Below, in pieces: positions 20,434-24,751 of a DNA stretch of 64,000 nt (positions are counted from its first letter, which is position 1; each line of letters opens with the position of its first letter). This stretch comes from Escherichia coli (GTDB lineage: Bacteria > Pseudomonadota > Gammaproteobacteria > Enterobacterales > Enterobacteriaceae). The stretch lies in assembly GCF_013122565.1 (NCBI RefSeq), contig NZ_CP053258.1. One strand, 5' to 3'. Under the pieces are notes generated by a model, which was not told the origin of the DNA, did no database searches, and was given only the letters and a program-made list of their open reading frames with translations. The position numbers and the translations under genes were made by a program.

Positions 20434-20506
20434 AAAAAGGCCACTCGTGAGTGGCCAAAATTTCATCTCTGAATTCAGGGATGATGATAACAAATGCGCG
20501 TCTTTC
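20434..20506 (-). ncRNA. micA: MicA (SraD) small regulatory RNA
   Basis: Minus-strand sequence GAAAGACGCGCATTTGTTATCATCATCCCTGAATTCAGAGATGAAATTTTGGCCACTCACGAGTGGCCTTTTT matches the MicA sequence as I recall it, including the intrinsic terminator; convergent with gshA and divergent from luxS. Confidence 0.85.
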
Positions 20507-20574: not shown

Positions 20575-21090
20575 ATGCCGTTGTTAGATAGCTTCACAGT
20601 CGATCATACCCGGATGGAAGCGCCTGCAGTTCGGGTGGCGAAAACAATGAACACCCCGCATGGCGACGCAATCACCGTGTTCGATCTGCGCTTCTGCGTG
20701 CCGAACAAAGAAGTGATGCCAGAAAGAGGGATCCATACCCTGGAGCACCTGTTTGCTGGTTTTATGCGTAACCATCTTAACGGTAATGGTGTAGAGATTA
20801 TCGATATCTCGCCAATGGGCTGCCGCACCGGTTTTTATATGAGTCTGATTGGTACGCCAGATGAGCAGCGTGTCGCTGATGCCTGGAAAGCGGCAATGGA
20901 AGACGTGCTGAAAGTGCAGGATCAGAATCAGATCCCGGAACTGAACGTCTACCAGTGTGGCACTTACCAGATGCACTCGTTGCAGGAAGCGCAGGATATT
21001 GCGCGTAGCATTCTGGAACGTGACGTGCGCATCAACAGCAACGAAGAACTGGCGCTGCCGAAAGAAAAGTTGCAGGAACTGCACATTTAG
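20575..21090 (+). CDS. luxS: S-ribosylhomocysteine lyase (AI-2 synthase)
   Basis: 171 aa with the HTLEHL metal-binding motif. Confidence 0.96.
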
Positions 21091-21107
21091 TCAGTGGAAC
21101 AAAAGAA

Positions 21108-21140
21108 GCCGGGCAGGTGACACCACCGCCCGGTTTTTTT
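21108..21140 (+). terminator. luxS intrinsic terminator
   Basis: gccgggcaggtgacaccaccgcccgg hairpin followed by ttttttt; the T-run overlaps the stop codon of the convergent minus-strand gene at 21139. Confidence 0.75.
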
Positions 21141-22251
21141 ACCTTTCAATCACCCGATACTCCACGCTATGTGCTTCATCAGGTTGAGGAACTTCCAGCC
21201 TTGAGGCCATCCGCAGCACGACCGCTTCAGGAACTGCATACTCGCGTCTGGCATTTTGCTGCTTCCATTGCGTCCATGGCACTTCCAGATAAACGATTTT
21301 TACTCGTGCGCCGTAAGCCGTAAACAGACTGATGAGCTGGCTACGCAGCTGGCGGGTAATGTTCGTTGCATTCCAGATGAACGGCTTTTTCTGGCGTAAA
21401 AAAACGCGTGCCTCTTCTTTTGCCTGTTGCACAATACGCCCGGTGGCGGTTTTGTCGTCCGGACTGGCATTGATTCGCCGCCGCATATCATCAAGGCTGA
21501 TAACGTCAATTCCCTGGCACTGTTCACTGATATAGCGATCTTTGCCCATACCCGGTAAGCCACACAGCAAAATAACCTCAAAAGGTTCAGCCCCCCAGGG
21601 AACAAAATCAGGAGAACTTTGCTCATGAGTCAGGTAGTGCCAGCGTGCGGAATCAGAAACGAACGGGCGCACTTTTCCCCAACACTGTTGCTCCTGGCAA
21701 AACAGCTCGAACAGATCGATGCGTTCCAGCATTGATTGCTGATCCGGGCTTTGGCGACCAAGCAGATCGGCACGAGCAAGCAAAGCGAGCAGACGCGTGT
21801 CGATGCGCATTGCAGCCGTGAGCAGCAAACGCTCCGGTTCCGGACGTTCCAGTAACCACAGCGGTAACCCATGCAGACGCACCAGCGCAACAATTTGCTC
21901 GCGTAGCACGAACGGCGTAGGGATATCGCGCCATAAAATTTGTCGGGCCGTCAATTCGCCCCGCCGAGCATGGCCAGGCGACTGAATACGTCCGTTTTCC
22001 TGCACGGTAGTGCTGCGCTTTTCAACATCATGCAATAACGCCGCCGCCCATAAAACTTCCTGCTGTTGAGCGGGGAGTTGCTGGAATTCTGGCAGAGTAA
22101 CGAGGGCGTTCAGCACCATTTCGGTATGCACGCCGACGTCGCCTTCACCATGATGCTCCGGGTCTTGTGGCGTGTGATGCATCTCCTCAACCCAACTGAA
22201 ACGCTGGAGTAGTGTCGACCAGCGTTTATCGTCGGTAAGCTGCCAAATCAT
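21139..22251 (-). CDS. two-domain protein: N-terminal HD-family phosphohydrolase fused to C-terminal P-loop polynucleotide-kinase-like domain (putative RNA end-healing enzyme)
   Basis: 370 aa. N-terminal half carries the HD signature H..H ([11 protein letters not shown]), HD (ALLHDVEKR), H (SPGHARRG), D (LARADLLGR). C-terminal half carries Walker [13 protein letters not shown], then SLDDMRRR and [10 protein letters not shown]...[13 protein letters not shown]...VPEAVVLRM, which parallels the T4 Pnk kinase-domain pattern as I recall it. Start overlaps the upstream gene by ATGA. Confidence 0.7.
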
Positions 22252-22955
22252 GACTGTTCTCCATAAGCGAACTCATGGGCCATCCGCGCCCGTTGCCAGT
22301 GTCGTTTCCAGTGCACGGTGGTTTTGACATGATTTTTGCGCACATACTTGAAGACGTTATGCGAAAAGTCAGCGACGGAAAACGCATCACGATTCCGGCT
22401 GACAATGCCTTCCAGCGTACAGGGTTGCCCGGTTTGTGTATCCCAGGGATCGAACGCGCCGCGCGCATTGGTCAGTGCCAGAAAATCACGTTGCCAGCTT
22501 TTTTCATCATTCCCCGGCTGCGGACCGGAGATTTCGGGAACGCAGGGGAAATCAAACAGAGCGGCGTAAAACTGCACCTCTTCCCAGCTCAGCCACATAT
22601 CCTGGCAGCGAACGGCAAACAGGTAAAAGTCCTGTTCCAGCGCGCGGTATTCAATGGAATGAACGGCGTAGAGATTTTCACCAAACAGTTCCAGATCGCC
22701 GAGATCGTTTTTCAGCAGTTGCCAACGCTGGCGAATTTTATAAGTCCATGCCGACTGCGTAGGCGCAGCATGGGAACGGGCAAACACGCCGTAGCGGTTA
22801 AGGCAGTTATTTTCGCCGTCGAGTTTTTCTGTGTGCACCAGTTGCGCAATGGCCTGTAAATCCTGCCAGTAATCGGCGTTAATGCGGTCATCGCTGGTGG
22901 TGCCAGGGGAGAAAGGATAATGCCAGGTTCTCCCGTATTTTCGTTGGGTATTCAT
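22248..22955 (-). CDS. small nucleotidyltransferase of the ATP-dependent RNA ligase type (putative RNA sealing enzyme)
   Basis: 235 aa. Candidate covalent-nucleotidyltransferase motifs: motif [10 protein letters not shown] (KxDGxN), motif IV-like TLEGIVSRN, motif V-like lysine pair [10 protein letters not shown]. Translationally coupled to the HD/kinase gene. Confidence 0.65.
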
Positions 22956-23175
22956 AATAATCCATTATTTTGTGTGTAATAAATGTACGCCCGCGAGGGT
23001 GCGAGTTATGGGGTTAAAAGAAAAATGTGAGTATCACCCGCGAAAGCGAGGGCGAAGGAAAAAGAGAATTAACAACCTGAGCGAATGCTCAGAACCGGTT
23101 AATGGTGAATGGAAGAGTTTGGGGCGGCGAAAAGATACACCGAATGAGTGGATAAAACAACCGTTTGCAGAATGA

Positions 23176-23205
23176 GCAAATAAAAAGGGAGCCGAAGCTC
23201 CCTTT
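23176..23205 (-). terminator. emrB intrinsic terminator
   Basis: Minus strand reads gggagcttcggctccc hairpin followed by tttttatttg, immediately after the emrB stop. Confidence 0.65.
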
Positions 23206-23212
23206 GACAACC

Positions 23213-24751
23213 TTAGTGCGCACCGCCTCCGCCGCCACCTGCGCCAAAGGGCGGTTTAGCAAACCACACCAGCCCCAGCAGGACGAGGAATATCCCGGCT
23301 GACATCCAGAAGATCTCATTGGCGGAAATAATCAGCCCCTGGTTAGTGATCTGCTGGGCAATCCAGCCTGATGCCTGCTGTTGCGTCATCCCAAGCCCTT
23401 CCAGTTGACTATACATCGCCTGGGCATTCGGGTTGAACGGGTTTACCGACTCAGTCAACTGCGCATGGTGCATCGACTCGCGGTTGGTCCACATGGTAGT
23501 GGTTATCGATGTGCCGATAGACCCCGCCAGCGTTCGCGTAAAGTTGGAGAGGCTCGATGCCGCCGCCAGTCGTTCCGGTGGCAAACCAGACAGCGTAATG
23601 GTGGTCAGCGGCATAAAGAAGCAGGCCACCGCAAACCCCTGGATAAACTGCGGCCATGCCGACGCGCCAAAATCCATACCTGGTTCAAAGGTATAGGCAC
23701 GCCAGTAGAAGCAGACGGCATACATAATAAAGCTGAAGGTTACCAGCCGCCGCATATCCAGTTTATGCGCGAAGCGGCCGATAATTGGCGACAGGATCAC
23801 CGGAATAATCCCTACCGGCGCAGAGGCCAAACCTGCCCAGGTCGCCGTGTAACCGTAGACCTCCTGCAACAACTGCGGCAGCAGAACAATAGCGCCGAAG
23901 TAGAGCATATACGCGAGGCTGATACACAAGCAGCCGATGGTGAAGTTGCGCGACTTAAACAACGACAGATCGACTATCGGGTTATCGTCGGTCAGCTCCC
24001 AGACAATCAGGAAGCAGATAGCCACCACCGCCACCACGGTAAGGATGATAATTTCCTGTGATGAAAACCAGTCCAGCTCTTTACCGCGGTCGAGCATAAT
24101 CTGCAGGCTGCCGATACCAATAACCAGCAGTGCCAGCCCCACGGCATCAATTCGCCGCCGTTCGGTGCGGGTTTCACGTCCGCGCAGAGTTTGCAGTGTC
24201 ATCAACACCACCGCCACGCCAATCGGCACGTTGATGAAGAATATCCAGCCCCAGTGGTAATTATCGCTGATATATCCGCCGAGGATTGGGCCGCAAATTG
24301 GCGCGACAATCACCGTCATCGACCACAACGCCAGCGCGATTGAGCGTTTGGCTGGCGGGTAATTATTCAGCAATAGACTTTGCGAAAGCGGGATCAACGG
24401 CCCGGCGACAATCCCCTGAATCACGCGGAAGAAGATCAGCATATTCAGGCTGCTGGAGACACCACACGCCCACGACGCAATAGCAAAGGCGATGGTTGAC
24501 CAGAGGAACAGTTTCACTTCCCCGACGCGCTTTGCCAGCCAGCCGGTAAGCGGGATCGAGATGGCATTCGCCACCCCGAAAGAAGTGATTACCCACGTTC
24601 CCTGGCTGAGCGATGAGCCCAGATTCCCGGCGATAGTGGGGATCGCCACGTTAGCAATGGTGGAGTCCAGCACCTGCATGAATGTCGCCAGTGACAGCGC
24701 AATCGTCATAATGACCAGTTGCGCGCCTTCCAGCGGTTTTTGCTGTTGCAT
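23213..24751 (-). CDS. emrB: multidrug efflux MFS permease (14-TMS DHA2 type)
   Basis: 512 aa beginning MQQQKPLEGAQLVIMTIALSLATFMQVLD, glycine-rich C-terminus; start trimmed from the ORF-track 24760. Confidence 0.93.
   Translation of the reverse strand: MQQQKPLEGAQLVIMTIALSLATFMQVLDSTIANVAIPTIAGNLGSSLSQGTWVITSFGVANAISIPLTGWLAKRVGEVKLFLWSTIAFAIASWACGVSSSLNMLIFFRVIQGIVAGPLIPLSQSLLLNNYPPAKRSIALALWSMTVIVAPICGPILGGYISDNYHWGWIFFINVPIGVAVVLMTLQTLRGRETRTERRRIDAVGLALLVIGIGSLQIMLDRGKELDWFSSQEIIILTVVAVVAICFLIVWELTDDNPIVDLSLFKSRNFTIGCLCISLAYMLYFGAIVLLPQLLQEVYGYTATWAGLASAPVGIIPVILSPIIGRFAHKLDMRRLVTFSFIMYAVCFYWRAYTFEPGMDFGASAWPQFIQGFAVACFFMPLTTITLSGLPPERLAAASSLSNFTRTLAGSIGTSITTTMWTNRESMHHAQLTESVNPFNPNAQAMYSQLEGLGMTQQQASGWIAQQITNQGLIISANEIFWMSAGIFLVLLGLVWFAKPPFGAGGGGGGAH

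Follow-up and report, generated by a model that had tools for sequence, protein, structure and literature searches.

An HD-Pnk/ligase gene pair between luxS and emrB of Escherichia coli, a candidate end-healing and end-sealing cassette

Gene pairs that join a ligase-type enzyme to a bifunctional end-healing enzyme have been on record since 2007, when the arrangement was reported in Deinococcus, and the healing partner was named HD-Pnk in 2017-2018. Here, we describe such a pair from Escherichia coli, in a stretch of 64,000 nucleotides (nt) of contig NZ_CP053258.1 (assembly GCF_013122565.1) that is referred to below as the window. Between luxS and emrB, two genes that overlap each other encode a ligase-type nucleotidyltransferase (NTase) of 235 amino acids (aa) and an HD-Pnk of 370 aa. 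The Escherichia pair belongs to the HD-Pnk/ligase type described earlier in Runella and Deinococcus, and is not a new system.

The HD-Pnk of Runella slithyformis combines 2',3'-phosphoesterase and 5'-OH kinase activities and has been termed a DNA/RNA end-healing enzyme (Munir & Shuman 2017, J Bacteriol 199:e00739-16, summarised in PMC6097658). Directly upstream, and overlapping the start of the HD-Pnk gene, lies an open reading frame (ORF) for a putative ATP-dependent ligase. The product forms ligase-AMP but sealed none of the DNA or RNA substrates tried (PMC6097658). The same four-gene cluster encodes Tpt1, which removes 2'-phosphates, and a methyltransferase-HIT protein (PMC6097658).

In Deinococcus radiodurans, the DR_B0100-DR_B0099-DR_B0098 operon is induced by radiation, and loss of DR_B0098 causes sensitivity to ionising radiation and mitomycin C (PMC6300522). 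The ligase DR_B0100 (LigB/DdrP) accepts AMP on K40 and does not ligate DNA alone (PMC1997131); one report found DNA ligase activity only when DR_B0098 and PprA were both added (PMC6300522). DR_B0098 (DraHD-Pnk) phosphorylates a 5'-OH DNA oligonucleotide (PMC1997131). More recently, the PARG/macrodomain protein DR_B0099 (plasmid pMP1; locus L009, 4373-5230) was proposed to strip ADP-ribose from 5'-phosphate RNA or DNA ends (PMC11833690, 2025). If this proposal holds, DR_B0099 would add a further end-cleaning activity to the cassette.

Domains and conserved residues of the paired proteins

The HD-Pnk gene occupies 21139..22251 on the minus strand and opens with ATG. Its product consists of an N-terminal HD phosphoesterase domain (approximately residues 1-215; 21607..22251, minus strand) and a C-terminal P-loop domain of the 5'-OH polynucleotide kinase type (approximately residues 222-370; 21142..21588, minus strand). 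The kinase part is matched by the Pfam family AAA_33 (E=1.2e-30, residues 226-355). The Pfam HD match is weak (E=0.013), and PF01966 is precomputed on many HD-Pnk orthologues. Sub-threshold NCBIfam matches include HDIG in the HD region (E=6e-4), the HD region of the CCA-adding enzyme and bacter_Pnkp, the last of these over the kinase region only and with 31 bits against a cut-off of 750. Among proteins of known structure, phmmer recovered CthPnk (4gp6, E=2e-4) and T4 Pnk (E=6e-3).

The predicted structure leads to the same families. An AlphaFold2 model of the 370-aa protein (predicted local distance difference test score 93.2) was compared with solved structures by Foldseek, which returned CthPnk and T4 Pnk with template modelling (TM) scores of 0.74 and 0.72; mammalian PNKP and the Trl1 kinase of fungi were also recovered. 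The N-terminal half of the model matches class II A- and CCA-adding enzymes, including 3wfp. In an alignment of 24 homologues that includes DraHD-Pnk, the predicted HD metal ligands H42, H74-D75, H94, H127 and D162 are invariant, as are the kinase residues K237, D254 (the predicted catalytic residue), R257 and R303. The Walker A motif, GLPGMGKD (residues 231-238; 21538-21561, minus strand), contains K237 and carries Asp after this Lys where Ser or Thr is usual. The GKD form is nearly invariant in the clade shared by Enterobacterales and Bacteroidota; the Deinococcus HD-Pnk has GKS. On its fold and catalytic residues, a reading of the 370-aa protein as a generic AAA ATPase was rejected. RefSeq names it 'ATP-binding protein' and its partner 'RNA ligase family protein'.

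The ligase-type gene (22248..22955, minus strand, ATG start) encodes an adenylyltransferase domain only, with K44 of the motif EKLDGEN as the predicted AMP acceptor. The protein matches Pfam RNA_ligase PF09414 over the full model (E=4.8e-28) and two PHROG RNA-ligase families at ~1e-31, and an NCBIfam search returned nothing for it. Across 28 aligned homologues from Enterobacterales, Bacteroidota and Deinococcus, the ligase motifs are invariant: K44-x-D46-G47-x-N49 in motif I, R60-S61 in Ia, E93-N94 in III, F113 in IIIa, E182-G183-x-x-x-R187 in IV and K203-x-x-R206 in V. The alignment also contains invariant segments specific to this family, at the N-terminus (K6, Y7, H12, G18, D22, D23 and R24) and at the C-terminus (H209, T212, H215 and W216).

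Comparison of the confidently predicted ligase model with known structures places it in the ligase NTase fold, closest to T4 Rnl2 and NgrRnl. RNA ligases (Rnl2, Rnl5, REL1 and Rnl3) rank ahead of DNA ligases. The model consists of the NTase core with short tails and has neither an OB domain nor an appended C-terminal domain; the C-terminal domain of Rnl2 and the N-terminal OB-like domain of Rnl5 are thus both missing from the 235-aa protein, which also has no significant similarity to DraRnl. It resembles Rnl2 and Rnl5 at the level of the NTase domain, is a member of neither clade, and belongs with the DR_B0100-like minimal ligases.

Two further observations concern the ligase. Its top phmmer matches in the PDB are molluscan hemocyanins (E=2e-9, residues 77-173), which were rejected as an artefact of repetitive targets because the score sums many weak repeat matches, each with E>=0.2. 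In an Adhaeribacter metagenome-assembled genome (L008, 5077-5847), the ligase is split into ORFs of 155 aa and 86 aa, possibly by a frameshift, pseudogene formation or an assembly error.

Both window proteins align over their full length with the characterised Deinococcus proteins. The D. radiodurans megaplasmid was located by a tblastn search of plasmids, and its annotation (RNA ligase family protein, TIGR02452 (PARG), AAA family ATPase) corresponds to DR_B0100-DR_B0099-DR_B0098. DR_B0098 aligns over residues 23-369 with 30% identity (E=2e-32), and its HD motif H81-D82 falls on H74-D75. DR_B0100 is 35% identical to the window ligase (E=1e-26), and its K40 falls on K44. Enterobacterales and Bacteroidota proteins share unusually high identity, at 53-59% for HD-Pnk (against homologues of Cytophagales other than Runella and of other Bacteroidota) and 62-66% for the ligase (L024 and L042-L090 compared with 21139-22955 of the window). 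Such conservation across phyla suggests strong constraint, inter-phylum transfer of the cassette, or both.

The two genes are almost always found together. At 22248..22251, the plus strand reads tcat, and hence ATGA on the minus strand; the TGA stop codon of the ligase gene and the ATG of the HD-Pnk gene share these 4 nt, and a GGAG is located 6 nt 5' of this ATG. The overlap is a probable site of translational coupling. In a neighbourhood survey of 90 loci across Enterobacterales, Bacteroidota and a plasmid, the ligase gene is co-oriented and directly upstream of the HD-Pnk gene, overlapping or adjacent, in all except Deinococcus, where the PARG gene intervenes (89/90). Housekeeping genes of unrelated function adjoin the pair in 66 of the 90 loci, for example dnaB-alr-tyrB in Xenorhabdus and mltG-tmk-holB-ycfH in Budviciaceae. 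The pair thus stands as a self-contained cassette.

We put at roughly 80% the probability that the pair is a self-contained HD-Pnk/ligase cassette that heals and seals nucleic-acid ends. Its presumed substrate is a break with a 5'-OH and a 2',3'-cyclic-phosphate or 3'-phosphate, such as metal-independent RNases, ribotoxins and some DNA damage leave behind. In the 370-aa protein, the C-terminal P-loop domain would phosphorylate the 5'-OH from an NTP, and the N-terminal HD domain would strip the 2',3'-cyclic, 3'- or 2'-phosphate with the help of a transition metal. The 235-aa enzyme would then adenylylate itself on K44 and pass the AMP to the new 5'-phosphate, and attack by the 3'-OH would reseal the strand. 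By analogy with the published homologues, the kinase, phosphoesterase and ligase self-adenylylation activities can be expected of the window proteins; what we infer is the joining of the strand, a preference for RNA and any particular target in vivo.

An earlier note on this DNA, made from the letters alone, had read motifs I, IV and V of an RNA-ligase-type enzyme in the 235-aa protein and a fusion of an HD domain to a T4-Pnk-like kinase in the 370-aa protein. Both readings stand, and every peptide motif that it quoted is present in the two translations. The profile hidden Markov model searches and structure comparisons that it proposed returned the RNA ligase, HD and polynucleotide-kinase assignments that it foresaw.

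Locus, distribution and inheritance

In E. coli K-12, the spacer between luxS and emrB is 63 bp, as the earlier note had said in calling it short, and the pair of ATGA-linked genes lies at the positions it had given. In an alignment anchored on both stop codons, similarity to K-12 ends 5 nt past the luxS stop and restarts ~1 nt before the emrB stop, with ~2.12 kb standing in place of the 63 bp. No direct repeats flank the junction in this alignment of the window with K-12. The neighbouring small RNA gene that had also been claimed is micA: MicA lies at 20435-20506 on the minus strand and was the sole match in an Rfam search of 18-27 kb.

The pair is present at the luxS–emrB locus in 998 of 5426 complete E. 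coli genomes (~18%), among them UM146, ST131 and ATCC 25922. Both ORFs are real genes rather than chance ORFs, because they have thousands of homologues and are annotated in these 998 genomes. Over 20900-23400, the window is identical to no complete E. coli genome; the best match reaches 98.2% and a typical carrier ~96.3%. The DNA probably comes from an Escherichia lineage that has been sampled sparsely.

Comparison of the luxS–emrB junction across Enterobacteriaceae, as had been suggested, found the pair at a fixed site after emrB in E. albertii, Citrobacter, Klebsiella spallanzanii, Kosakonia, Enterobacter sp., Superficieibacter and Phytobacter. Identity between the window and Citrobacter is 76% for HD-Pnk, 85% for the ligase and 96% for EmrB, and the divergence of the pair at this fixed locus tracks host phylogeny and the flanking genes. 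This pattern fits long residence 3' of emrB in Escherichia, with loss from most E. coli lineages including K-12, rather than a recent insertion. We rejected a mobile-element insertion, in agreement with the earlier view that the pair lies outside any obvious one: the junction has no repeats, no integrase or transposase is nearby, and the locus is constant, with host-tracking divergence, across Enterobacteriaceae. Beyond cellular genomes, adjacent and co-oriented ligase (43% identity) and HD-Pnk (39%) genes occur in a 462-kb uncultured phage genome (LR756500.1; L093, 4258-6041).

Hairpins flank the pair on both sides. Between the converging luxS and HD-Pnk genes, a GC-rich hairpin (GCCGGGC...GCCCGG) spans 21106..21141, has T runs on both strands and is likely a bidirectional terminator; a terminator scan flagged its minus-strand version at 21127..21112. 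On the other side, a spacer or leader of 257 bp (22956..23212, minus strand) separates emrB from the ligase gene. It contains the emrB terminator called by the scan (23205..23184) and a second hairpin, CTGAGC-loop-GCTCAG, with a tract rich in T after it (23093..23076). Blocks of this spacer are kept in 11 loci of Escherichia, Citrobacter, Klebsiella, Kosakonia, Enterobacter and Superficieibacter, and the second hairpin shows one compensatory change, from C-G to T-A, in Citrobacter. The spacer is found in exactly the 998 E. coli genomes that carry the pair, has no Rfam match, and folds more stably than shuffled controls (z-score -2.9). The hairpin at 23076-23093 could act as an attenuator or 5' leader.

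Substrate, sealing step and the RtcB-PrfH link

Several points weigh against a complete healing and sealing cassette. Neither of the two tested homologous ligases sealed the DNA or RNA substrates tried, though both self-adenylylate, and sealing is unproven. The earlier note had seen in the pair the full enzymatic set for repairing cut RNA; its healing half is borne out by the domains, and its sealing half is not. The note had also named RNA as the target. Ligase fold and gene neighbours do point to RNA, but the Deinococcus phenotypes, sensitivity to ionising radiation and mitomycin C, point at least equally to DNA damage. On the healing side, one study could not attribute the phosphatase activity of the HD domain to the DR_B0098 protein (PMC1997131). 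The likeness to Runella HD-Pnk, which shares the domain order (N-terminal HD, C-terminal kinase) and the overlapping upstream ligase, is one of published description and not of direct sequence alignment. A sigma-70 scan upstream of the ligase gene called no promoter, and no regulator was identified; by eye, a weak candidate promoter may be read as TTGTTT (23160-23155) and TATCTT (23137-23132) with 17 nt between them. Finally, an rtcB2-prfH knockout of ATCC 25922 is reported to be sensitive to colicins E3, E5 and D. Because this strain keeps the pair, the natively expressed pair seems to give no obvious protection from these colicins, no pair knockout having been compared.

The failure to seal may reflect the enzyme itself. 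The 'ligase' is possibly, on a tentative view, no general sealer: it might have an unusual end requirement, such as the 2'-phosphate/3'-OH of fungal and plant tRNA ligases, act only on a structured substrate, need HD-Pnk as an obligate partner, or merely modify 5'-phosphate ends with AMP. Two independent homologues that self-adenylylate and seal nothing tried are consistent with such a restriction, as is a bare NTase domain with invariant terminal segments of its own. The strict coupling of the genes, by ATGA overlap or direct adjacency, suggests a complex with HD-Pnk, and the Tpt1 of the Runella cluster would fit 2'-phosphate ends. Nonetheless, Tpt1 is linked to the pair in 0 of the 90 loci, the motifs for all three ligase steps are intact, and the negative results in vitro may reflect missing conditions only.

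Deinococcus raises a second alternative, a module for the repair of DNA strand breaks, in which a PNKP-like HD-Pnk would act on 3'-phosphate/5'-OH DNA and a LigB-like ligase would seal it, possibly with further partners. The radiation-induced operon, the DR_B0098 phenotypes, the reported ligation with DR_B0098 and PprA, and the phosphorylation of a DNA oligonucleotide all speak for this, together with the description of the Runella enzyme as one that heals both DNA and RNA ends and the presence of mammalian PNKP among the best structural matches. It is nevertheless unlikely for the Escherichia pair. The ligase folds closest to RNA ligases and has no DNA-ligase OB domain, DR_B0100 failed to ligate DNA by itself, PprA is absent from E. 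coli, and the neighbourhood is free of DNA-repair genes. RtcB, which is specific for RNA, and PrfH, a ribosome factor, are the sole functional neighbours that recur.

This linkage offers a lead to the substrate. RtcB is co-oriented with the pair in 24 of the 90 loci, 15 of which have PrfH between RtcB and the ligase, and in many Bacteroidota, as in Serratia, the pair forms the 3' half of a co-oriented rtcB-prfH-ligase-HD-Pnk cluster (upstream of the HD-Pnk match in L006/L007, 2520-6116; L008, 3009-7110; and L019-L023, L043, L045, L051, L062, L066, L068, L074 and L090). In two loci (L026 and L082), RtcB is downstream of the pair instead. The linkage is unmentioned in the searchable RtcB2-PrfH papers. 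Because RtcB, a bona fide RNA repair ligase, recurs beside the pair in this way, an RNA substrate is favoured.

Within E. coli, co-occurrence was assessed with a concatenated query of the pair and the rtcB2-prfH segment missing from K-12. The query matched 3717 places in 2753 genomes, which corresponds, as an estimate from place counts, to intact rtcB2 in ~2719 genomes, ~964 of which are among the 998 pair carriers. By this estimate, intact rtcB2-prfH (at the dinB-pepD locus) is present in ~90-97% of carriers against ~40% of non-carriers; among the matches listed, 18 of 22 carriers have both. ATCC 25922 is one strain with both (NZ_CP158443.1, 1238663-1240458; L091, 1426-3176). The association is confounded by phylogeny, B2-type lineages in particular, and is only suggestive.

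The pair might accordingly be a second arm of RtcB-PrfH ribosome rescue and repair, serving rRNA or tRNA ends that RtcB cannot use. The linked loci and the co-occurrence in E. coli agree with this, and RtcB2-PrfH itself repairs 16S rRNA cut by colicin E3 (PMC9304027, PMC9223846). However, neither RtcB nor PrfH has a match anywhere in the window, most of the 90 loci stand beside unrelated genes, the E. coli association has the confounder just named, and ATCC 25922 without rtcB2-prfH is sensitive to colicin E3 despite its pair. As a general role it is doubtful. A narrower version is more doubtful still: the pair would be a dedicated partner of RtcB-PrfH for breaks in ribosome-embedded rRNA (or in tRNA) whose ends have decayed beyond use by RtcB, with a ligase active only on such structured or ribosome-bound substrates or in complex with HD-Pnk. 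A requirement of this kind would explain why the homologues adenylylate themselves yet seal nothing in standard assays.

Very improbable is a role in anti-phage defence, or in phage counter-defence that undoes host anticodon-nuclease damage as T4 Pnkp/Rnl1 does: the phage-borne cassette, the PHROG RNA ligase and polynucleotide kinase family matches and the T4 precedent would fit it, but neither protein matched a defence family of PADLOC-DB v2 at E<=0.01, the chromosomal locus is stable, vertically inherited and neither a defence island nor a prophage, and a full-length HD-Pnk occurs in only 1 of 50,697 phage records.

A self-contained healing and sealing cassette of the HD-Pnk/ligase type thus remains the preferred reading of the pair. 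As a discovery it is modest, since the system was published in 2007-2018 and is here re-derived from sequence alone; the E. coli member is uncharacterised. The interest of the pair lies mainly in the question of what the ligase seals, RNA or DNA, and in the RtcB-PrfH linkage, whose recurrence in other phyla offers a concrete and testable substrate hypothesis. E. coli provides a genetically tractable setting, and its carriers include ATCC 25922, where RtcB2-PrfH was shown to protect against colicin E3.

Comparison with known repair systems

The earlier note had held the arrangement to be unlike T4 Pnkp/Rnl and bacterial Pnkp/Hen1, and so it is; it is nonetheless a described one, from the Runella cluster (PMC6097658) and the Deinococcus operon (PMC6300522, PMC1997131). 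RtcB2-PrfH differs in chemistry, as RtcB joins 3'-phosphate or 2',3'-cyclic-phosphate ends straight to a 5'-OH, unlike the ligase and HD-Pnk. T4 Pnkp has its phosphatase, an acylphosphatase of the DxDxT type, on the C-terminal side of the kinase; the window ligase lacks the C-terminal domain of Rnl2, and the T4 genes are no overlapping pair.

The bacterial Pnkp/Hen1 system of Clostridium thermocellum and Anabaena, and its relative Pnkp1-Rnl-Hen1, share with the window the logic of kinase, 2',3'-phosphatase and ATP-dependent ligase, and the kinase 4gp6 is the closest solved structure. In Pnkp, however, a binuclear metallophosphoesterase and the ligase Rnl4 are part of one chain and the 2'-O-methyltransferase Hen1 is obligatory, whereas the window pair has an HD phosphatase and a separate minimal ligase. 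No Hen1-like ORF lies in the neighbourhood, which sets the pair outside Pnkp/Hen1.

The closest relatives are the HD-Pnk systems. Runella, a different host, has Tpt1 and a methyltransferase-HIT protein beside the pair, both absent from the window. Deinococcus has the ligase first and HD-Pnk last, as in the window, and differs in the PARG gene between them, in its megaplasmid location and radiation induction, and in having been studied as a DNA repair system. The Escherichia protein has the HD metal set, a T4/CthPnk-type kinase domain, homology to the characterised DR_B0098 and an overlapping upstream ligase ORF, and with these it takes its place in the HD-Pnk family.

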